DNA from: Kiritimatiellia bacterium
Lineage (GTDB): Bacteria > Verrucomicrobiota > Kiritimatiellia > CAIQIC01 > Lenti-01
NCBI GenBank assembly: GCA_040768005.1
Contig: JAXGNL010000004.1
Location: forward strand, 18,153-82,152
Reading direction: 5' to 3'
DNA length: 64,000 bases
The translations under genes were made by a program, and so were the position numbers. The notes under the pieces were generated by a model that saw nothing but the letters and a program-made list of their open reading frames with translations, made no database searches and was not told the origin of the DNA. This document shows positions 2,793 through 61,374 of this stretch, one piece after another; position 1 is the first letter of the stretch, and every line of letters begins with the position of its first letter.

Positions 2793-3587
2793 ATGATGCG
2801 TCCCGACCATTTGAAAATCTCCGCCTGCGTCACCGCCGGCAACGAGGAGGACAAGATCGCCGCCTGTCTCGCCAGCCTGTCCTGGTGCGATGAAACCATT
2901 GTCGTGGACTCCTTCAGCCGGGACAAAACCTTCGAAATCTCCAAACAGTACACCCCCCACGTCTATCAGCACGCCTGGGAAGGCTACATCGCCCAGAAAA
3001 ACTACATCCGCTCCCTCGCCCACTATCCCTGGATCCTGTTCGTGGACGCCGACGAAGTGGTCTCCAAGGCCCTGCGCGACGAAATCGAGACCGAATTCCA
3101 GCGCGGCCCCGGCGACGTGGCCGGCTACAGCTTCCCCCGCATGGTCCATTATCTCGGCAAATGGATCCGCCACGGCGAATGGTACCCCGACATCAAACTG
3201 CGCCTGTTCCGGAAGGACCGCGGCCATTCCGAAGGCCAGGAACCCCACGACCGCGTCGTCGTGGACGGCCCCGTCAAAACCCTCCGCGCCCCCCTCTACC
3301 ACTTCACCTACGACAACCTCGCCGACCACATCCATACCATCAACCGGTTCTCCTCCATCACCGCCAACGAGAAATACCACCGCGGCGACGTCTTCCGCTG
3401 GCGCGATCTGTTCTTCCGCCCCCCCTTCCGCTTCTTCAAGTCCTACATCCTGAAAACCGGCCTCCTCGACGGCCGCCAGGGCTTCATCATCGCCGTCCTG
3501 TCCGCCTTCGGCGTCTTCGTCAAGTATGCCAAGCTCCTGGAACTCGGCATCCAGCACCGCCCCCCCGATCCCCGGCCCCATGACTGA
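2793..3587 (+). CDS. family-2 glycosyltransferase, LPS-core type (WaaE/KdtX-like)
   Basis: ORF 2760..3587. ATG 2793 gives MMRPDHLKISACVTAGNEED...VDSFSRD...FVDADE, the GT-A fold with a DxD-like DADE motif. Its stop overlaps the start of the next gene by 8 nt. Confidence 0.75.
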   Translation: MMRPDHLKISACVTAGNEEDKIAACLASLSWCDETIVVDSFSRDKTFEISKQYTPHVYQHAWEGYIAQKNYIRSLAHYPWILFVDADEVVSKALRDEIETEFQRGPGDVAGYSFPRMVHYLGKWIRHGEWYPDIKLRLFRKDRGHSEGQEPHDRVVVDGPVKTLRAPLYHFTYDNLADHIHTINRFSSITANEKYHRGDVFRWRDLFFRPPFRFFKSYILKTGLLDGRQGFIIAVLSAFGVFVKYAKLLELGIQHRPPDPRPHD

Positions 3588-5670
3588 ACCCGCCTGGCAG
3601 ACGCGCGGCCCCTGGCGCCTCCTCATCGCCTCCGGCCGGGACCGGCCCGGCTTCGATGAAACCCTCGCGCGCCTCCCGTTTCTCGTGGAAAAAGAGGCGG
3701 CCCCCCTCGTCCGCCCCGGCCGCCACCGCGTGGACCGCCTCCTGCTGTCCTGCGGCGACGCCACCATGGACGCCGTCGTCAAATCCTACGGCGCGCAGGC
3801 CGCCTGGCGCGACCGCCTCGCCCTGCGGCACGGCTCCAAGGCCGAACGCGCCTTCCGCACCGCCCTCGCCCTCCGCGACGCCGGCGTCGGCACCCCCGCC
3901 CCCATCGCCGTCGTCGAACGCTGGGAAGGCCCCCGCCTCCGCGACAGCCGCCTCGTCTCCGCCTTCGTCCCCCGCCTGACCAGCTTCCGCGACGAACTCG
4001 ATCGCCTCTATGCCGAAGCTCCCCGCTGCACCCCCCTCATGGACCTGCTCCAGGCCGTCGCCGGCGCCGTCCGGGCCCTGCACGATGCCGGCATCCTCCA
4101 CCGCGACCTCGGCAACCAGAACATCGCCCTTCAGCGCGACCCCGATCAGCCCGGCGCCCCCTGGAACGTCCTGTTTCTCGACCTCAACCGCGCCCGCCAG
4201 ATCCCCGCCCCCACCCCCGCCCAGCGCGGCGCCGATCTCGCCCGCCTCGACCTGCCCTCGGATTTCCGCCGCGTCTTCCACGCCATGTACCACCACGGCC
4301 ATTCCCCGCCGCCCGAGTTCGCCGACGCCGAACAACGCGCCCGCGCCGCCTTCGACCGCCATACCGCCCTGCGCCCCCTCCGCCATCCCCTGCGCGAAGC
4401 CCGCCTCCGCCGCCAGAACGCCGGCGTCACCCCCCCCCTGCGCGGACGCGACATCTGGATCTGGGACGACCGCTCCGCCCAGGCCATCCCCGCCTATGCC
4501 CCCCGCGACCGCCGGCGCCTCCTGCCCGCCGCCAACGTCACCGCCGCCCTGCGCGGCATCGCCCGTACCGGCCTCGCCATCCGCCGCCGCCACCGCGACC
4601 TTCTCCGGCAGAGCTTCCAGGCCCCCGTGCCGTTCGACGGCGCCATCGGCATGACCCTCGACGCCGAACCCGCCGCCTGGTCCCGCCAGCTCGCCTTTCT
4701 CGATCAGCTGCAGGGCGAACAGAAACTCCCCCTCCTCCTCCGCCTCTATCATCACCAGAATCCCGAGGCCTGGCACTGGACCCTCGACCAGGCCCTGAAC
4801 CTCCACCGCCGCGGGCATTCCGTCGCCCTTGCCCTCGTCCAGGACCGCCGCGCCATCCGCGAACCCAAAGGCTGGCGCCAGATGGTCACCCTCGCCTTCG
4901 ACCGCGCCCACACCTTCGCCGACTTCTTCGAAATCGGCCACGCCGTCAACCGCTCCAAATGGGGCATCTGGGATTTCCGCGACTACGCCCGCCTGCTCGA
5001 CCCCGTCCGGTCCAGCCTCATCCAGTATCCCGACGCCCGGATCACCGGGCCCGCCTGCATCGATTTCGAACCCCACGCCCTCGCCGCCCTGCTCGAGATC
5101 CTTCCCCCGGACATCCGCTTCCACGCCCTCTCCCACCACCTTTACGTGGACCGCCGCGGCGCCCCCGAAAACCGCCAGGGCCCTCACGACACCGTCTCCA
5201 AATGCGCCCTCCTGCGCGCCTTCGCACGCGTCCATTCCTTCACCGACGACCGGCCCCTCATCACCGAAGTCAACTGGCCCCTCGCCGGCACCGGCCCCTG
5301 GTCCCCCGTCACCTCCCCCTACGAAACCCTCGCCCCCCGCCAAAACGATCCCTCCGTCAGCGAAGACACCTACGCCGCCTACATGGCCCGCTACCTCCTG
5401 CTGACCATCGCCTCCGGCCACATCGCCCGGGTCTACTGGTGGCGCCTCGCCGCCCGCGGCTTCGGACTCGTGGACGACACCGATCCCGCCGCCTGGCGCC
5501 CCCGCCCCGCCTTCACCGCCCTGCAAACCATGCTCCGCCAACTCCGCGGCGCCGCCTTCTCGCGCAAACCCGAAACCCCTCCCGGCGAAGTCGCCCTCGA
5601 ATTCACCCGCCCCGACGGGTCCCCCCTCACCGCCCGCTGGACCCTCGACACCCCCCCCGTGTGGGACTGA
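3580..5670 (+). CDS. two-domain protein: N-terminal lipopolysaccharide kinase (Kdo/WaaP/InaA family) domain fused to a C-terminal clan GH-A-like TIM-barrel domain
   Basis: ATG 3580 (MTEPAWQ...) lies inside ORF 3526..5670. N-terminal ~300 aa carry kinase-like HRDLGNQNIAL ... LFLDLNRA motifs. C-terminal ~390 aa carry glycoside-hydrolase-like strands (FFEIGHAVN, PLITEVNWP). It is a single uninterrupted frame of 696 aa. Confidence 0.6.
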   Translation: MTEPAWQTRGPWRLLIASGRDRPGFDETLARLPFLVEKEAAPLVRPGRHRVDRLLLSCGDATMDAVVKSYGAQAAWRDRLALRHGSKAERAFRTALALRDAGVGTPAPIAVVERWEGPRLRDSRLVSAFVPRLTSFRDELDRLYAEAPRCTPLMDLLQAVAGAVRALHDAGILHRDLGNQNIALQRDPDQPGAPWNVLFLDLNRARQIPAPTPAQRGADLARLDLPSDFRRVFHAMYHHGHSPPPEFADAEQRARAAFDRHTALRPLRHPLREARLRRQNAGVTPPLRGRDIWIWDDRSAQAIPAYAPRDRRRLLPAANVTAALRGIARTGLAIRRRHRDLLRQSFQAPVPFDGAIGMTLDAEPAAWSRQLAFLDQLQGEQKLPLLLRLYHHQNPEAWHWTLDQALNLHRRGHSVALALVQDRRAIREPKGWRQMVTLAFDRAHTFADFFEIGHAVNRSKWGIWDFRDYARLLDPVRSSLIQYPDARITGPACIDFEPHALAALLEILPPDIRFHALSHHLYVDRRGAPENRQGPHDTVSKCALLRAFARVHSFTDDRPLITEVNWPLAGTGPWSPVTSPYETLAPRQNDPSVSEDTYAAYMARYLLLTIASGHIARVYWWRLAARGFGLVDDTDPAAWRPRPAFTALQTMLRQLRGAAFSRKPETPPGEVALEFTRPDGSPLTARWTLDTPPVWD

Positions 5671-5749: not shown

Positions 5750-5858
5750 ACGGTGTTTATAAACTCCGATACCCCCGAATCAATACTGTCTTCTATAACG
5801 CTTCTTACTTGCTCATGAATAAGCAGATATGAAGTGAACGGTGTTTATAAACTCCGAT
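5750..5858. repeat. two identical 21-bp direct repeats (ACGGTGTTTATAAACTCCGAT), each a near-palindrome, flanking a 67-bp AT-rich spacer between convergent gene ends
   Basis: Copies at about 5750-5770 and 5838-5858, seen directly in the sequence. The core GTTTATAAAC is self-complementary. Local GC is far below the ~70% window average. Confidence 0.8.
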
Positions 5859-5875: not shown

Positions 5876-6523
5876 TCAGGGCAGGACGTGCCAGAGGATG
5901 GCGCAAAAATGACAGGCGGCGCCCGCCAGCACCAGCAGGTGCCAGACCGCGTGGTGGTATCGCACGCGCTTGAACAGATAGACCACCGCGCCCGCGGTGT
6001 AGCACAGCCCCCCCGCCCACAGCCAGCGCACCCCCGCCGCCGACATGTGCTCCACCAGCGGCTTCATCGCAAACACGATCACCCACCCCATCAGCACGTA
6101 CAGCGCCGTGCTCGCCGCCTTGAACCGCCCCGTGAAGAATCCCTGAAAGACCATCCCGACCGCCGCGATCCCCCACACCACCCCGAACAGCGTCCAGCCC
6201 AGCGCTCCCCGCAGCGTGATCAGCACGAACGGCGTGTACGTCCCCGCGATCATCAGGAAGATCATCTCGTGATCCAGCACGCGGAACACCCGCTTCACCC
6301 TCGGCCACGGAAAGCTGTGGTACAACGTGGACGTCGTGAACATCAGCACCATCGCCGCCCCGTAGATCGCGCACGGCGCCACCTGCCAGGCCCCCTCCCC
6401 GCGCTGCACCGCCGCCACCATCAGCACCACCAGGCCGGCAATCCCCAGCACCGCCCCCAGCCCGTGCGTCACCGCATGGGCAATCTCCTCGCCCACCGTG
6501 TATCTGGACGCCGAAGCGCTCAT
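5876..6523 (-). CDS. hemolysin-III / PAQR family membrane protein (YqfA-like)
   Basis: ORF 5876..6634. ATG at 6523 gives MSASASRYTVGEEIAHAVTHGLGA..., with seven hydrophobic helices and the conserved His-rich termini of the HlyIII family. Confidence 0.8.
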   Translation of the reverse strand: MSASASRYTVGEEIAHAVTHGLGAVLGIAGLVVLMVAAVQRGEGAWQVAPCAIYGAAMVLMFTTSTLYHSFPWPRVKRVFRVLDHEMIFLMIAGTYTPFVLITLRGALGWTLFGVVWGIAAVGMVFQGFFTGRFKAASTALYVLMGWVIVFAMKPLVEHMSAAGVRWLWAGGLCYTAGAVVYLFKRVRYHHAVWHLLVLAGAACHFCAILWHVLP

Positions 6524-6590
6524 GCCGCCTGCCCCGGTTCCCCGCGACCTTGTGCGGCCGGCCCCAGACCCCCGCGCCCTCGCGCCGGGA

Positions 6591-6662
6591 TTTTCCACGC
6601 CATGGAAAACTGTTCCGCCGGTTTTCCACGCCATGGAAAAGATTTTTCCACACCGTGGAAAA
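6591..6662. promoter_or_regulatory. array of three 19-bp palindromic sites TTTTCCAC-N3-GTGGAAAA upstream of the hemolysin-III gene
   Basis: ttttccacgccatggaaaa at 6591-6609 and again at 6622-6640, and ttttccacaccgtggaaaa at 6644-6662. Centre-to-centre spacings are 31 and 22 bp. The array lies between the hndD 3' end and the hlyIII start, 68-140 bp upstream of the hlyIII ATG. Confidence 0.6.
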
Positions 6663-6698
6663 TCCGGAAAATGCCGATCCCTGTCACGATCCCGGCTC

Positions 6699-8442
6699 CT
6701 AGCGCTTGTACTTCCGCCGCGGCCGGTAGCCCGTGTGCAGCAGCTCGTGGGACTTGTGCCCCAGCGGCGCGCCCAGGAAATCCTTGTAGAGCTTCTGGAT
6801 CATCGGATTTTCGTGCGAACAGCGGAACGCGCTCTTTTCATCGTCGCGGTAGATGCCCGCCGCGCGCTGCGCGCGGATCTCGTCGGTGGCGCCGTACGGC
6901 TGCCCGCCGCCGCCCACGCAACCCCCGCGGCACGCCATCACCTCGATGAAGTGGAACGGCGTCTCCACCCCCTTCTTCCGTGCCGCGCGCACCTTGTCGA
7001 GCACCTTCTCGATGTTGGCCATCGAGTGGGCCACCGCCACGCGCACTTCCTTGCCCGCCACCTGCAGCGTCGCCTCCTTCACGCCGTCGAGCCCGCGGAT
7101 CGCCGTCAGTTCCATCGTGGGCAGCCGCCCTTGTCAGCGCTCCAGTGCGCCGTGCGCAGCGCGGCCTCCATCACGCCGCCGGTCACGCCGAAGATCGTGC
7201 CCGCCCCCGTGTAGTCGCCCAGCACCGAGTCCACCCTGCTCGTCGTCGGGCAGGTTCGGGAAGTCGATCCCCGCGCTCTTGATCATCCGGCAGAGCTCGC
7301 GCGTCGTCAGCGAATAATCGATGTCCTGCTGCCCGAGCTGCTCATCTCCTCGCTGCGGCGGATCTCGAACTTCTTGGCCGTGCAGGGCATGATGGACACC
7401 ACAAACAGGTCCTTGGGATCCAGCCCCAGCCGCTTGGCGTAGTAGGCCTTCAGCGCCCCCACCATCGCCTGCGGCGACTTGGCCGTCGAGAAGTTCGAAT
7501 GAAGTCCGGCGCGAATTTCTCCATGTAGTCGGTCCACGATTGGCAGTAGTTGGTGATCAGCGGCAGGTCGCCCTCGCTGTTCACGAAGCGCTCGATGAAC
7601 TCGGAGCCCTCCTCCATGATCGTCAGGTCCGCGCCGAAATTCGTGTCGAACACCGCGTTGAACCCCAGCCGCCGCAGCGCGGCGTAGATCTTGCCCGTCA
7701 GCAGCGTCCCCGGCTCGTAGCCGAAATCCTCCTCCAGCGCCACGCGCACCGCCGGGGCGATCTGCACCACGCAGCAGCCGGGTCCGCCAGCGCCGCGTAC
7801 ACTTCCTTCGCGTGGCTGTGCTCGTAGATCGCCCTCACCGGACAGTGCGCCGAGCACTGCCCGCACTGGATGCACGGCGATCGCCAGCGTCACGTCCGCC
7901 GCCGGCGCGATGCGCGTGGTCTCCCCGCGCCCGATGAACTCCAGCGCCCACACCCCTGCATCTGCTGGCACACCGCCGCGCACCGCCCGCACAGAATGCA
8001 CTTCTCCGGATTCAGGATCAGCGCATCCCGTCGTGTCGTCCGCCGGCAGGTCCCGCAGCCGCTTGCCGTAGGGCGCCTCGCGCACCCCGAACTCCGCCGC
8101 CAGCCGCTGCAGCTCGCAGTTGTTGTTGCGCGGGCACTGCAGGCAGTCGTCCGGATGCGTCGAGAGAATCAGCTGGATCACCGTGCGCCGGATGCCGTAG
8201 AGCTCCGGATCGTGGGTCGTGACCTCCTGGCCGTCCGCCGCCGGCGCCACGCACGCGCGCACCAGCTTGTTGAACCCCTTGATCTTCACCACGCAGATCC
8301 CGCACGCCGCCCACGCCGGCAGGTCCGGGTGGTAGCACAGGCTCGGAATCTTCACCTGCACCTGCTTCGCCGCGTTCAGGATCGTCGTGCCCTCCGGCAC
8401 CTCCACCGGCAGCCCGTTGATGGTCAGCTTGACTGTCTTCAT
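6699..8442 (-). pseudogene. hndD: [FeFe]-hydrogenase catalytic subunit (HndD/HydA-type), interrupted by multiple frame breaks
   Basis: Consecutive pieces of one HydA homolog lie in three track ORFs in different frames (7450..8607, 7307..7537, 6699..7115), and further pieces lie in untracked frames. The N-terminus has a 2Fe-2S block (CYHPDLPAWAACGICVV) and a His-ligated 4Fe-4S block (HPDDCLQCPRNNNCE). The ferredoxin motifs CILCGRCAAVC and CIQCGQCSAHCP are only recovered in alternative frames. H-cluster motifs MPCTAKKFE and FIEVMACRGGCVGGGGQP are present. I counted at least 6-8 frame switches by hand. The start ATG overlaps the hndC stop (ATGA). Confidence 0.85.
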
Positions 8443-10248
8443 CGTTCCATCCCTCTCGCCTGGCGGCTCACGGCGCCGAACTTGCACGCCTTGAGGCACT
8501 CGCCGCACTTGATGCAGTTCTCCTGGAGGATCCGGTGCGGCTTCTGCCGCTCGCCCTCGATCGTGTTCACCGGGCACTTGCGCGCGCACAGCGTGCAGCC
8601 GATGCACTTGGCCGGATCGATCTCGTAGGTCACCAGCTTCTTGCAGACCCCGGCCGGACAGCGATGGTCCTCGATGTGCGCCCGGTACTCCTCCGCGAAA
8701 TAGTGCACGTCGAGAGCACGGGTCGGGCGCCGGCCTGCCCCAGCCCGGCCAGCGCCGCCTTCTGCATCGCCGCGCCCACCTCCCGGATCTTGTCGAGATC
8801 CTCCGCCTCGCCGCGCGCCCTCGCGCAGATCTTCTCGAGCAGGTTCAGCAGCGTCCGCGTCCCGATCCGGCACGGCGCGCACTTGCCGCAGCTCTCCTTG
8901 TCCACGCAGAATTCCTGCAGAACTGCGCCACGTACAGCATGCAGTCGTCCTCGTCCATCACGATCATGCCGCCCGAGCCCATGATCGACCCCAGCTCCTG
9001 CAGATGCTCGTAGTCGATCGGCGTGTCCAGATACTCCGCCGTGATCACCCCGCCCGACGGCCCCCCCGTCTGCACCGCCTTGAACGCCTTGCCGCCCCGG
9101 ATCCCCCCGCCGATGTCGTAGATGATCTCCCGCAGCGTGATGCCCATCGGCACCTCGATCAGCCCCGAATTGATGATCTTGCCCGTCAGCGCAAACACCT
9201 TCGTGCCCGGGCTCTTCGGCGTGCCCACCTTCGCGAACGCCTCGCCCCCGTTGAGCAGAATCACCGGAATGTTCGCGTACGTCTCGACGTTGTTGATCAC
9301 CGTCGGCTTCTGCCACAGCCCCGACACCGCCGGGAACGGCGGACGCGGAATCGGCATGCCCCGCTTGCCCATGATCGACGCCAGCAGCGCCGTCTCCTCC
9401 CCGCAGACGAACGCCCCCGCCCCCAGCCGGATCTCCACGTCGAAATCAAACCCCGATCCCAGGATGTTCGCACCCAGCAGCCCGTACTCGCGCGCCTGCG
9501 CGATCGCCGTCTCCAGGTGCTCGATCGCCAGCGGATACTCCGCGCGGATGTAGATCACCCCCCTGGACGCCCCCACCGTCCGCCCCGCGATCGCCATCGC
9601 CTCCAGGATCGAGTGCGGATCGCCCTCGATCGTCGACCGGTCCATGTACGCCCCGGGATCCCCCTCATCCGCGTTGCACACCACGTACTTCTCGCCGCCC
9701 GGCGCGTCCTTCGTGAACTTCCATTTCATCCACGTCGGAAACCCCGCCCCGCCCCGCCCCCGCAGGCCGGACTTCTTCAGCTCCTCCACCACCTGGTCCG
9801 GCGTCATCTCCGTGAGCACCTTCGCCAGCGCCTCGTACCCCATCCGCGCGATGTATTCGTCGATCTTCTCCGGATCGATCACCCCGCAGTTGCGCAGCAC
9901 CATGCGGTACTGCTTCTGGTAGAACGACAGCTCCTCCATCCGGATCAGCGAGCGGTCCCGCCCCTTTTCGTACAGCAGCCGCTGCACCGGACGCCCCTTC
10001 AGCACGTGCTCGGCCACGATCTCCCGCGCGTCCGACGGCTGCACGCTGACGTAGAACGTCTCGTCGGGCAGGATCTTCACGATCGGCCCCTTCGCGCAGA
10101 AGCCGAAGCAGCCCGTCCGCACCACCTGCACCTTCCCCTGCGCCCCCTGCGCCGCCACCTCCTGCACCAGCGCCTCGTAGAGCTCGTTGCTGTGCGTCGC
10201 CACGCAGGCCGTTCCCCCGCACACCAGAATGTAGGTCTTGATCGCCAT
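8439..10248 (-). pseudogene. hndC: NAD(P)H-binding flavoprotein subunit of hydrogenase (HndC / NuoF-like), two frame breaks near the 3' end
   Basis: ORF 8845..10248 (MAIKTYILVCGGTAC ... GGMIVMDEDDCMLYVAQFC) continues in a different frame in ORF 8630..9316 (EFCVDKESCGKCAPCRIGT ... PVLST) and then in ORF 8439..8882 (LDVHYFAEEYRAHIEDHRCPAGVC...CIGCTLCARKCP...CIKCGEC). This is a NuoF-like core plus C-terminal 2x[4Fe-4S]. Confidence 0.85.
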
Positions 10249-10263
10249 CGCCCGGTCCTTCCT

Positions 10264-11342: not shown

Positions 11343-11984
11343 GTGAAAGTCAAGAACATGATGATGCAAAAGGACATGATCCAGCGCCTGATTCGCTATA
11401 AAAACGCCCCTGCAAGAAATTCGAAGTCGCTGGGATTGACCCGAGTCTTCTCCGACAATCTGGGCGAAGCCGCCGGAACTTCCGCCGCGCTGGTGCGCAA
11501 GGACATCTCGCTGGCCGGCCTGACGGTCGGCAACAAGCGCGGGGGCTATCCCATTGACGCCCTGCTGCAGGGCCTCGACGCCCTTCTCGGCACCGACACC
11601 CAGCAGCGCGTCATCCTGGTCGGCTGCGGCAAAATCGGCACCGCCCTCATGCACTATCCCGGATTCTCCTCCGAATCCATCCAGATCGTCGCCGGATTCG
11701 ACAACAAACCCGACCGCCTGGACCCCGATGCCGCCATTCCCATTCTCCCGGTCGGCCAGCTCCCCGCGTCTGTGAAGGAAAACGGCATCCAGGTGGCCAT
11801 CCTGGCCGTGCCGGAATCCGCCGCCGCGGCGGTCTTTGATCAGCTCGCCGCCGCCGGCATCCAGGGCGTGCTCAATTTCTCCCCCGTCCAGCTCAAACCC
11901 GCCCCCGCCCTCATCGTCCAGAACATCAACATCGCCCTCGAAATCGAAAATCTCTTCACCTGCATCCGCTTCAACCAGCGGTGA
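11343..11984 (+). CDS. rex: redox-sensing transcriptional repressor Rex
   Basis: N-terminal winged-helix block (IQRLIRY ... RKDISLAGLTVGNKRGGYPIDALL) followed by an NAD(H)-binding Rossmann fold (RVILVGCGKIGTALMHY ... VAILAVPESAAAAVFDQLAAAGIQGVLNFSPVQL). The track start is a GTG at 11343. ATGs at 11358-11364 are alternative starts. Confidence 0.85.
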   Translation: MKVKNMMMQKDMIQRLIRYKNAPARNSKSLGLTRVFSDNLGEAAGTSAALVRKDISLAGLTVGNKRGGYPIDALLQGLDALLGTDTQQRVILVGCGKIGTALMHYPGFSSESIQIVAGFDNKPDRLDPDAAIPILPVGQLPASVKENGIQVAILAVPESAAAAVFDQLAAAGIQGVLNFSPVQLKPAPALIVQNINIALEIENLFTCIRFNQR

Positions 11985-12002
11985 CCCGCCCCCCCCTTGC
12001 CG

Positions 12003-13093
12003 GTGTCAGGCACTGACAATGTTGACAATTCAGGCGGCTAGCCCGCAGAGGTCCATGCGGCCGATAGTTGCTCCATAATCGCGTTGAGTTCCGAATCCTC
12101 CGCCATTCTCTGCCGAAGGCGCGCTGCCTGGCGACACACAGCGCCCGCTGTTTCGAATCCCAGAAACTCCGCCACGGCGCGTTGCGTCATGCGGCTATGC
12201 CGCATCAGCATGGATACGGCCGCCGCCCGGGCCTTTCCGCCATAGGACCGCCGAAACAGGGACTCCTCCTCCACCCCGAATGCCAGCGCCACCCGGTGAA
12301 CCACTTCTTCCGGCTCGATACGGACCGCCACCCGCCGCATGGCCTCCGAGCGAGTCCCGCGAATCGTTTCCGGCTCCGTGGAAGTCCGTTCCGAAACCTT
12401 GTCGCGAGATTGTTCCAATCCACTCTCCTGCTCCAGCCGGGACCAAGACCATGAAAGGCCCGTCTCAACAAACCGGCGATAGGCGGCACGCCGATGGGCC
12501 ATTTGTTTCTTCCCCATCAAAGCCAGGAGCGGCTTGTCATCCAGCATCTCCGACGCCGGAGCCAGGCCGGCATAAACCCGAAAGCTGCTCCAGGGATATC
12601 CACTCAAATAAGCCAACCTCTGCCTGTGTGAACCTTGCGGAGTCAACTCGCGGTTCACGGGATTCAGATGGATATACCGAGACAGATTCAGCAAATAGCG
12701 ATCCCCCTTCACCAGGACCGCCCCGTACCGCCCCTGCATCAGATGGCCGGTGCGGTCGTGCCGCAGATTGAAGTACAGCGTATAGGCCGTTTGCAACCGA
12801 TGCATGAAGCGGCTGAGATTGCCCCGCGGAGTTTCCACCAGCAAATGAAAATGGTTGGGCATGAGGCAGTACAGATAGAGACGAACGCCATCCTGCTCCA
12901 CGGCCAGGTCCAGGTTCTCCATAAAACGCCGCCGGTCTGCGTCGTCCATGAAAATCAATCCGCGACCCACTCCCCGCTGCGTCACGTGATAGATCGCACC
13001 CTCGTATTCAACTCGCCGCTTTCTGCCCATGCCATCATCCTGCCGGTTCTTTGTTCCCCCTGCAAGCAAATTGTCAGTGTCAGGCACTGACAT
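12003..13093. mobile_element. ~1.09-kb IS200-like mini-element (copy 1) bounded by REP-like hairpins
   Basis: The sequence GTGTCAGGCACTGACA (stem TGTCAG/CTGACA) occurs at 12003-12018 and 13077-13092, and each is followed by a TGACAATT-like segment. Between them lies a single transposase gene. Confidence 0.6.
12038..13030 (-). CDS. IS200-like HuH (Y1) transposase with C-terminal DnaA-like HTH domain (RAYT-like)
   Basis: ATG 13030 (MGRKRRVEYEGAIYHVTQRG...). HuH motif LMPNHFHLLVETP and catalytic-Tyr region GRYGAVLV...YIHLNP. The C-terminal ~100 aa resemble DnaA domain IV. Confidence 0.8.
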   Translation of the reverse strand: MGRKRRVEYEGAIYHVTQRGVGRGLIFMDDADRRRFMENLDLAVEQDGVRLYLYCLMPNHFHLLVETPRGNLSRFMHRLQTAYTLYFNLRHDRTGHLMQGRYGAVLVKGDRYLLNLSRYIHLNPVNRELTPQGSHRQRLAYLSGYPWSSFRVYAGLAPASEMLDDKPLLALMGKKQMAHRRAAYRRFVETGLSWSWSRLEQESGLEQSRDKVSERTSTEPETIRGTRSEAMRRVAVRIEPEEVVHRVALAFGVEEESLFRRSYGGKARAAAVSMLMRHSRMTQRAVAEFLGFETAGAVCRQAARLRQRMAEDSELNAIMEQLSAAWTSAG

Positions 13094-60207: not shown

Positions 60208-60284
60208 CTGATGCGCTGGCGCAGGCATGACGCAACAGAATCTCCCGTCCCACCCCGTTTGCAAAGCAAAAACCCCTTCCATCG

Positions 60285-61365
60285 GGGTCAGACCGTAAAT
60301 ATTCACTTTCGGGTTGACTTGCCTAAATGCACAGGGTAGGAAATTAACATGCCTAGACCGCCTCGCACGGAATTCGAGCATGCCCTGTATCATGTCACAA
60401 GCCGGGGAAATGCCCGCCAGGTGTTATTTCACACCGACAGTGACCGAATTCGTTTTTTAGGCCAGCTGCGTGACAATCTCGAAACGTATGGGGTGGTACT
60501 TTATGCGTGGGTGCTGATGGATAACCATTTCCACTTGGTGCTCAGAACTCCACGGGCAAACTTAAGCCGTTTCATGCAAAGGCTCAACAGCAGCTACAGC
60601 CTGTACTATCGTTACAAACACGGGAAGCCGGGCCATGTGATGGGAGGCCGTTTCAAGGCCCCCGTCATTCAAGACGATACCTATCTGCTTTCGGTAACAC
60701 GATACGTTCATCTGAATCCGGTGCAGACCCAGAGACAACAACAACGAACCGCCAAAGAACGAATGGCGTTCTTGAATGCCTATCCCTGGAGCAGCTTTCC
60801 GAACTATGTCCGAAACACCCCTTTCCCGGATTGGATGAGCAATTATGTGCTGAAAGCCTATGGACGAAACCTGAAAGAGGCCCGTAAACGCTACAGGTCT
60901 TTGGTGCTCTCCGGCATGACGCGGCAGAAGGAAGCGGCCCAGGACCTGATGAAGTCCAGCCCATACGCGATTGGCAGCGCCGATTTCGTGGATAGAACCA
61001 CGCGGGAGTTATCCCAGCGCGCAACGGGCGGACCTCAAGATAGAGACATTTCGCTGCCCCGGACCGGCATGGCGTTGAACGAAATCGACCGGGTGGTTAG
61101 TCAATACTTTGGTTTATCGCCAGCCGAATTGCAGCAACACGGACGCATAGCCGGCCCTGCCAAAATAGTGGCACTGGAGTTGGCCGCCCGCTGGAGCGGG
61201 AAAACCCTCCGCGCCATTGGACAATACTATGGGCAGATCAGTAGCCAAGCCGTCACCATGGCCCGCAAGCGTGCCAAACAGATACAGAAAGTCGAATGGG
61301 ATAAACTGGGTCGCGAATTGGAAGCGGCTCAACAGACGTTAAAGTGATAATTTACGGTCTGACCC
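60285..61365. mobile_element. 1.08-kb IS200-like element (copy 2) with perfect 16-bp terminal inverted repeats
   Basis: GGGTCAGACCGTAAAT at 60285-60300 and its reverse complement ATTTACGGTCTGACCC at 61350-61365 bracket a single transposase gene. Internal GC (~50%) is far below the window average. Confidence 0.7.
60349..61347 (+). CDS. IS200-like HuH (Y1) transposase with DnaA-like C-terminal HTH (paralog of 12038..13030, roughly 50% identical over the catalytic domain)
   Basis: LYHVTSRGNARQVLF ... LMDNHFHLVLRTP ... GRFKAPVIQDD...YVHLNPV. 332 aa. Confidence 0.8.
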   Translation: MPRPPRTEFEHALYHVTSRGNARQVLFHTDSDRIRFLGQLRDNLETYGVVLYAWVLMDNHFHLVLRTPRANLSRFMQRLNSSYSLYYRYKHGKPGHVMGGRFKAPVIQDDTYLLSVTRYVHLNPVQTQRQQQRTAKERMAFLNAYPWSSFPNYVRNTPFPDWMSNYVLKAYGRNLKEARKRYRSLVLSGMTRQKEAAQDLMKSSPYAIGSADFVDRTTRELSQRATGGPQDRDISLPRTGMALNEIDRVVSQYFGLSPAELQQHGRIAGPAKIVALELAARWSGKTLRAIGQYYGQISSQAVTMARKRAKQIQKVEWDKLGRELEAAQQTLK

Positions 61366-61374
61366 AGATGGGGA

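Follow-up and report, generated by a model that had tools for sequence, protein, structure and literature searches.

The triple dyad upstream of hlyIII is probably one copy of a lineage-specific family of dispersed intergenic repeats in the Kiritimatiellia (PVC superphylum), which is REP/BIME-like and predicted to be a protein-docking site. The family is dispersed and lineage-restricted. Its units are spaced in quantised steps, its modules have sharp ends and conserved linkers, no orientation bias is seen, and it is absent from the orthologous hlyIII loci of related genomes. The family is apparently undescribed, as no earlier description was found in the searched literature on Kiritimatiellia palindromes and the motif. 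Its host lineage, the Kiritimatiellia of anaerobic digesters, is uncultured and poorly studied, and the repeat architecture is unusually strict.

The DNA analysed is a stretch of 64,000 nucleotides (the window). Three 19-bp dyads (TTTTCCAYRCCRTGGAAAA) are located in it between the stop codon of an hndD-like [FeFe]-hydrogenase gene and the start of hlyIII. The features of the locus are as follows.

5876..6523, minus strand: hlyIII, with its ATG at 6523 (Pfam HlyIII, E = 2e-42); context, outside the repeat
6584..6696: stretch between the 8-bp inverted repeat GCCGGGAT / ATCCCGGC, comprising the module and 26 extra bases
6591..6609, no strand: unit 1, asymmetric type 'A', TTTTCCACGCCATGGAAAA, with the half-sites TTTTCCACG and TTTTCCATG
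6610..6621: long linker of 12 nt, CTGTTCCGCCGG, giving the 31-bp spacing; a member of the semi-conserved class A.tTTTtCGCGAtT in an alignment of 33 modules
6622..6640: unit 2, asymmetric type 'A', a copy of unit 1 (TTTTCCACGCCATGGAAAA) in the same orientation
6641..6643: short linker of 3 nt, GAT, giving the 22-bp spacing
6644..6662: unit 3, symmetric type 'S', TTTTCCACACCGTGGAAAA, a perfect 8-bp dyad whose left half TTTTCCACA matches the DnaA-box consensus
6663..6673: partial or degenerate half-unit TCCGGAAAATG (minus strand CATTTTCCGGA), adjoining the S unit
6699..7115, minus strand: 3' end of the hndD-like [FeFe]-hydrogenase gene (Fe_hyd_lg_C and Fe_hyd_SSU); context, outside the repeat

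An earlier, sequence-only reading of this DNA had described three palindromes, two of them identical and the third with a perfect 8-bp dyad, at spacings of about 31 and 22 bp. All three were recovered (6591-6609, 6622-6640 and 6644-6662), with TTTTCCACGCCATGGAAAA present twice and TTTTCCACACCGTGGAAAA once. The start-to-start spacings are exactly 31 and 22 bp, and the whole module measures about 72 bp. The further GGAAAA half-site, previously placed at about 6664, does exist and occupies 6666-6671. A half-unit remnant like that at 6663..6673 also stands beside the array in locus L117.

The triple dyad is far above chance expectation. When up to 3 mismatches were allowed, the dyad pattern gave four matches in the 64-kb window, three of which belong to the array; dinucleotide-preserving shuffles of the window gave a mean of 0.06 matches, and none of 100 shuffles reached four. 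No second good copy of the dyad was found outside the array in the window. The 240-bp region around the array is 100% identical in four other, independent assemblies (L001, L002, L003 and L005), two of which are public genome or metagenome records, and therefore the array is not an assembly artefact.

With respect to hlyIII the array is 68-139 bp upstream; the hydrogenase stop codon precedes it by 37 bp. The minus-strand ORF ending at 6699 encodes the C-terminal domains of an HndD-type [FeFe]-hydrogenase; upstream of this gene are genes for NuoF-like and 2Fe-2S subunits, followed by a divergent Rex-like gene. The gene context given earlier, with the array between the 3' end of a hydrogenase operon and the start of hlyIII, is thus correct.

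The same earlier reading had placed the array in the hlyIII promoter and had proposed a comparison of the upstream region among related genomes. Six orthologous loci were compared, whose HlyIII proteins are 87% (L132), 85% (L134), 85% (L136), 83% (L008), 82% (L006) and 74% (L010) identical to that of the window, and the dyad was absent upstream of hlyIII in all six. In the closest relative (L132), only 17 bp separate the hndD stop codon from the hlyIII start. The other loci in which hlyIII is linked to the hnd genes (L134, L136, L006 and L008) have spacers of 86-112 bp with unrelated G+C-rich hairpins; in L010, hlyIII is located away from the hnd genes. Since the dyad is absent from these six orthologous loci, the array represents a lineage-specific gain of the window's species and does not belong to a conserved hlyIII promoter. 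Measured against the 17-bp spacer of the closest relative, the gained DNA may correspond to the stretch 6584..6696. An operator specific to hlyIII was rejected on the same six loci.

The motif was next found to be widespread outside this locus. A genome collection with one genome per species (596 Gb) was scanned with a pattern of two adjacent units, for which the taxonomic range and the copy numbers are lower bounds. At least 118 stretches, with arrays of 2-9 copies, were present among the matches listed; by our own estimate, about 0.002 matches would be expected by chance. All the matches listed fall in about 29 MAGs assigned to Kiritimatiellae, Verrucomicrobiota, Lentisphaerae or Opitutia (28 bear one of these labels, and one is a plain 'uncultured bacterium'). 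The array-bearing MAGs have several arrays per contig. In the relatives used for the hlyIII comparison, the unit likewise recurs away from hlyIII: three units stand directly upstream of alaS in L006, and L010 has six units between tRNA-Val and pheS, and eight units, one of them degenerate, within a MoxR/VWA gene cluster. Conspecific copies were also sought; no scan locus among the matches listed came from the window's species, and the window itself holds a single copy. The density is about one array per 40-65 kb, i.e. tens per genome, which is an estimate from array-centred loci and the window rather than a count.

The exact A-A unit pair of the window was found in 93 metagenome stretches; clustering at ≥95% identity reduces these to 61 distinct loci. 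One metagenome sample contributed eleven contigs with the A-A pair, all of similar coverage. Only two viral contigs matched, each with the same module as the other, and a phage element was rejected on this basis.

The family unit is a 19-bp dyad, T-TTTCCA-C-R-S-N-R-TGGAAA-A. Among 422 units, the arms TTTCCA and TGGAAA are near-invariant, the flanking T and A are about 90% conserved, and the centre is C-R-S-N-R; the flank consensus preceding TTTCCA is g/a-T. Two unit types occur, a symmetric one (S; C...G) and an asymmetric one (A; C...A, with the halves CCAC-R and CCAT-N). The units are joined by a short linker of 3 nt (22 bp), a long linker of 12 nt (31 bp) or, rarely, one of about 23 nt (40-43 bp). 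In the genome loci, 126 spacings were about 22 bp, 159 were 30-32 bp and 12 were 40-43 bp; the corresponding numbers for the metagenome loci were 95, 177 and 14, the last group lying at 41-43 bp. These centre-to-centre spacings are near two, three and four turns of B-DNA. Common descent from a single master module, and not a constraint of helical phase, could be part of the reason for this quantisation.

The A units share one orientation in 100 of 110 arrays, and the most frequent architecture, A-31-A-22-S, is that of the window's own array. Alignment of 33 three-unit modules from many genomes showed sharp ends, semi-conserved linkers (A.tTTTtCGCGAtT and AaatG) and unrelated flanks. Because the linkers are conserved alongside the dyads, the module appears to spread by copying as one piece and not site by site. 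Direct and inverted repeats in the flanks were at or below a shuffled-pairing null, and a MITE-like insertion was rejected.

The genomic positions of the arrays were determined from 122 loci, with genes called by a simple and crude GC3-based caller. Tandem gene pairs flanked 67 arrays (369 background gene pairs), convergent pairs flanked 24 (24%, compared with 118 or 20% of the background), and divergent pairs flanked 10 (10%, compared with 94 or 16%). The median distance of an array from a facing stop codon was 41 bp, and in tandem contexts the stop codon was nearer than the start in 44 of the 67 arrays. Orientation with respect to transcription was unbiased (67 vs 67 units). Array orientation was also uncorrelated with GC skew (Fisher p = 0.42), and a replication-oriented polar element was rejected accordingly. 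The genes starting within 150 bp of an array encode 56 proteins with 84 Pfam families and no common theme. The recurring downstream genes were orthologous loci only (pheS five times, an outer-membrane efflux protein three times and trpD twice), and no recurrent regulator gene was found among the 56. This distribution fits REP-like or neutral insertions and not a regulon.

These data bear on the possibility that a dimeric regulator, dedicated or global, binds the three dyads cooperatively and controls hlyIII, the other arrays being its regulon. The dyad symmetry of the units, their helically phased spacing and the independent variation of their half-sites are all in keeping with operators. Divergent, promoter-containing regions are among the array contexts (10), and some arrays stand directly before start codons and are conserved, such as those 0-48 bp upstream of pheS in five species. 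However, the six orthologous hlyIII upstream regions have no motif, convergent genes enclose 24 of 101 arrays, and the arrays tend towards stop codons. The 84 Pfam families of the 56 downstream proteins offer neither a theme nor a regulator gene. The linkers are conserved across unrelated loci, which is unlike the prediction of independent operator evolution, and a search for a sigma-70-like promoter in the array region found none. Regulation of this kind is therefore considered unlikely. The regulon that a motif scan had been expected to define did not emerge, as the downstream proteins show no coherent function; with orthologues that lack the motif, dispersed copies and heterogeneous genes, the proposal of a regulon-defining operator array in the hlyIII promoter was not supported. 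The more general part of that proposal, cooperative sites for a dimeric, possibly nucleoid-associated protein, is still plausible, given the phased spacing and the independent half-sites.

The preference for gene 3' ends also raises the possibility of an RNA element, in which transcribed hairpins would terminate transcription or block exonucleases and so stabilise the upstream hnd mRNA. For the REP sequences of E. coli, a role as an mRNA-stabilising exonuclease barrier has been proposed. The median of 41 bp after stop codons, the common convergent contexts and the nearer stop codon in 44 of 67 tandem cases agree with such a role. The intergenic RNA folds far better than its shuffles (z = -4.3), the coding strand has one weak terminator-like hairpin, with a T-rich tail, at 6662-6644, and a palindrome works either way round, which is consistent with the lack of orientation bias. 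An intrinsic terminator has a G+C-rich stem directly before a U-tract. The terminator-like match has an 8-bp stem with three G-C pairs and takes its T-run from the next unit, and the stems in general are A/T-rich and are followed by A-runs. Against an RNA role, the stems are A/U-rich with only three G-C pairs, and an A-run instead of a U-run comes after the stem. The A units have a C-A mismatch on one strand, but strand preference is absent (67 vs 67). No pairing covariation was seen, as only one of seven double changes was compensatory and the inner positions are independent, and helical-turn spacing has no obvious meaning for an RNA. The Rfam search returned no match except a chance-level miRNA model (20.9 bits, against a gathering score of 63). 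A strand-specific RNA element was rejected, because the U-G-compatible orientation is unbiased with respect to transcription and Rfam gave no match; an RNA 3'-end function as a whole seems improbable.

The half-site TTTTCCACA is also the DnaA box used in cyanobacteria (PMC4674748), and the arrays might accordingly be DnaA-box clusters that titrate the replication initiator or are regulated by it. This half-site matches TTWTNCACA and is the commonest of the family (272 of 844); S units often have two such boxes, and the S unit of the window has one. In the window, the consensus is matched by one of six half-sites; across the family the figure is 32%, and 54% of the units contain one or more matching half-sites. 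Against a DnaA cluster, the fit is limited to this 32%, and the A units keep a T at box position 8, where DnaA requires a C. Successive boxes face opposite ways and are separated by 1 or 3 bp; the arrangement preferred by E. coli DnaA is in tandem, with 2-3 bp between boxes (PMC11317965). The dnaA gene is absent from about 1.7 Mb of array-bearing loci, and the window has no GC-skew switch, the skew being uniformly negative. A replication origin or DnaA cluster was rejected on the negative skew, the one perfect box in the window, the 32% fit and the lack of a nearby dnaA gene, and a link to the initiator is very unlikely.

The window also contains two Y1_Tnp ORFs, which raises the question of whether the units are RAYT substrates. 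They would then be mobilised by these Y1 (HUH) transposase-like proteins, with a DnaA-domain-IV-like C-terminus reading the DnaA-box-like arms. Weak Bac_DnaA_C similarity was detected at the C-termini (E = 0.002; tblastn against E. coli DnaA, E = 0.004), and the architecture of a Y1 domain with such a C-terminus is that of TnpA_REP subclass 2.1.2, or TIRYT, according to Quentin et al. (PMC6006769). A Y1 gene of this kind is found 1.5 kb away from the largest array, which has nine units (L128/L142). However, no units flank the Y1 genes of the window, L128 and L085, and both Y1 copies of the window are bracketed by their own TIRYT-type terminal inverted repeats, including GGGGTCAG. In our reading of the sequences, conservation is lacking at the residues that align with the DnaA base-contacting motif DHTTV. 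The Y1 genes are not enriched near arrays, and a PDB search with one of the window's Y1 transposase-like proteins gave nothing useful. The RAYT/REPtron link was rejected, because the Y1 genes have no flanking units and carry their own TIRYT-type inverted repeats, and it must be regarded as extremely improbable.

The units show signs of constraint and appear to be recognised as double-stranded DNA. The arms are perfect in 371 of 403 in-register units and are conserved across species-level MAGs. Some orthologous gene boundaries have kept their arrays between species with varying unit number; at the pheS boundary, arrays of 3 to 8 units stand 0-48 bp upstream at five loci in five species. Arrays conserved in this way leave room for a possible real cis-regulatory role at places such as pheS. 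Within a species the unit number is stable, being identical in conspecific contigs (≥95% identical loci) from different samples, and on this constancy a VNTR (hypervariable tandem repeat) was rejected. In the S units, variation at inner position 8 is independent of that at inner position 10, with 61 A/T pairs observed against about 63 expected. Variant arms are few for a covariation analysis, and one of seven arm double changes was compensatory. From this independence, the two half-sites, TTTTCCAC-R, seem to be read one by one on double-stranded DNA and not as the paired bases of a hairpin. Because the half-sites are independent and the units helically phased, protein docking is favoured as what would keep the arms.

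The probable course of events under the repeat-family reading is as follows. The module was gained in the lineage of the window's species, in a spacer that is short or filled with other hairpins in its relatives, and it would have been propagated by copying, in the manner of REP/BIME. The arms would be kept invariant through binding of a putative host dimeric DNA-binding protein, and the putative dimers might stack on one helix face every two, three or four turns. The element would then serve the chromosome at large as a site for docking or insulation, and blocked read-through from the hnd operon, like any other effect on hlyIII, would be incidental, with no dedicated regulation. No binding protein or mobilising enzyme for the family was found in this analysis.

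A more specific version can be offered only tentatively, and is rather doubtful at present. The arrays might be docking sites of a putative Kiritimatiellia-specific DNA-organising protein (a nucleoid-associated factor, a transcription insulator or a roadblock factor), the dimers of which would polymerise along one helix face. Such a protein would account for the grammar of two, three and four turns, the near-invariant arms and the fact that some orthologous gene boundaries have kept their arrays. If this is true, the PVC superphylum would possess a new, site-specific system for structuring the nucleoid, and the repeats would form its genome-wide address code. More generally, if the helical-phase grammar does reflect protein binding, the repeats would give a handle on a new DNA-organising protein.

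There are also practical consequences for annotation. Labelling the element an hlyIII operator, or deriving a regulon from it, should be avoided. Any ORF prediction that runs through the repeat is an artefact, and a 242-aa 'long' HlyIII in public collections (P0001) is apparently one such case. Moreover, the repeats account for contig breaks in MAG assemblies of the group and could be used as lineage markers.

Comparison with known systems showed several similarities to the REP/BIME class. REP/BIME elements are short (20-40 bp), imperfect extragenic palindromes with many dispersed copies per genome. The Kiritimatiellia repeats are also short, imperfect and intergenic, with a 19-bp dyad that is just under this size range and probably tens of arrays per genome. 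Like REP/BIME, they form mosaic clusters from a few unit types and discrete linker classes, and are frequent at gene 3' ends and between convergent genes. Their sequence is likewise lineage-specific, and some positions are conserved between species whereas others are not. The differences are also clear. The units here are shorter (19 bp), with an A/T-rich stem of 7-8 bp, and the linker lengths correspond to whole helical turns. The A units are co-oriented in 100 of 110 arrays, whereas REP clusters alternate. The REP palindrome has a conserved GTAG or CGTC tetranucleotide at one end (Di Nocera 2013, PMC3733652); here, GTAG occurs within 8 nt of only 3 of 453 units and CGTC of 10 of 453, so that there is no such tag. 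No unit-flanked RAYT gene was found within about 1.7 Mb of sampled loci.

Among phased operators, the ARG boxes (two 18-bp palindromes 3 bp apart), the NrdR boxes (about 31-32 bp centre to centre) and the ComK boxes are similar, in that dyads are repeated at two or three helical turns, a pattern that points to oligomer binding along a single DNA face. These boxes belong to promoters that together make up a coherent regulon, and orthologous promoters keep them; the Kiritimatiellia repeat, in contrast, is dispersed, orientation-free, common at 3' ends and absent at orthologous hlyIII, and its linkers are conserved between loci. DnaA-box clusters (datA, DARS and the B. subtilis DBCs) are also intergenic, and TTTTCCACA is a valid box; whereas in the present family only a third of the half-sites fit, the boxes are inverted, the copy number is far higher and a link to dnaA or oriC is missing. 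MITEs and Correia/ERIC-type repeats share the discrete module (about 72 bp here), the sharp ends and the unrelated loci, but the present family has no terminal inverted repeats or target-site duplications above chance, and is a tandem array with variable unit number. CRISPR arrays have 23-47-bp repeats and unique spacers of similar length; a CRISPR array was rejected, since the linkers here are of 3 or 12-14 nt and are conserved between loci. In the tag, the flanking RAYT gene and the alternating orientation the family departs from canonical REP, yet its closest analogue is the REP/BIME class.

Arrays of three to eight copies of the 19-bp dyad unit are kept immediately upstream of pheS in several species. 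They were located in the following loci of related MAGs:

L010, 12224-12377: pheS-upstream array
L076, 6592-6692: pheS-upstream array
L092, 3540-3649: pheS-upstream array
L091, 3094-3329: pheS-upstream array
L083, 6432-6501: pheS-upstream array
L034, 2937-3006: pheS-upstream array

Of the five clustered loci, four have the array 0-48 bp ahead of the predicted pheS start; in L034 the distance is 124 bp. A conserved TTTTCGTGCTTTCCATT also precedes the pheS arrays in four loci (L010, L076, L092 and L034). The repeat element may have gained a local role at the pheS site.

Linkers of the rare 41-43-bp class contain an inserted G+C-rich mini-hairpin (ATCCCGC-N-GCGGGAT), whose length is such that the units on either side remain separated by complete helical turns. 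Mini-hairpin linkers and a second palindrome were found at these positions:

L013, about 3545-3570: mini-hairpin linker
L078, about 561-586 and about 729-753: mini-hairpin linkers
L091, about 3142-3166: mini-hairpin linker
L111, about 2695-2720: mini-hairpin linker
L045, about 4152-4180: 26-bp palindrome CTATCACTTATAATTATAAGTGATAG
L064, flank of the array 1376-1445: 26-bp palindrome CTATCACTTATAATTATAAGTGATAG

The latter is a perfect palindrome adjoining arrays at two separate loci of one MAG, and may be a member of a second repeat family.

At the hlyIII locus of the window, the module plus 26 further bases is enclosed by a perfect 8-bp inverted repeat, GCCGGGAT / ATCCCGGC (6584-6591 and 6689-6696), which may mark an inserted segment or may have arisen by chance. 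The longest hlyIII ORF of the window (5876-6634) encodes 252 aa from the ATG at 6634, and its N-terminus (FHGVEN...) reads through the repeat array. Public gene calls include a 'long' HlyIII of 242 aa (P0001), which exceeds the 215 aa of the form starting from the ATG at 6523. The 242-aa protein is taken to be a putative gene-caller artefact of the same kind as the 252-aa ORF, produced by the open hlyIII frame of the repeat. Between the convergent 3' ends of hlyIII and a 714-aa Kdo/WaaP-kinase-like ORF is a short AT-rich stretch (5750-5850; 38% GC, against about 68% for the genome). Over 1-64000 the GC skew stays strongly negative throughout (about -0.04 to -0.33), also where plus-strand genes predominate.

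The hndD- and hndC-like genes of the window (6699-10250) are split into several ORFs; in the MAG contigs L001-L003, which carry the same array region, they are unbroken (584 and 595 aa). Divergence between the window and these contigs is about 2%, with 28 gap openings over 6.7 kb, which suggests either indel errors in the assembly of the window or true pseudogenes of the strain. Rex, rather than the palindromes, is the obvious candidate for the regulator of the hnd operon. The Rex-like gene is divergent from this hydrogenase operon, and the same arrangement is kept in relatives (L002, L006 and L008). It and two TIRYT-type elements lie in the window as follows:

11343-11984, plus strand: Rex-like redox-sensing repressor gene (Put_DNA-bind_N plus CoA_binding)
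11998-13092: TIRYT-type element 1, with Y1 (HUH) transposase-like ORF 12038-13093 on the minus strand
60279-61371: TIRYT-type element 2, with Y1 (HUH) transposase-like ORF 60349-61347 on the plus strand

The two Y1 ORFs share 33% identity, and the C-terminus of both has weak DnaA-domain-IV-like similarity. Their homologues occur about once per 190 kb among the related loci sampled. Each element is enclosed by its own terminal inverted repeats, of 23 nt in the first and 31 nt in the second; those of the second contain GGGGTCAG, which matches the published TIRYT consensus.
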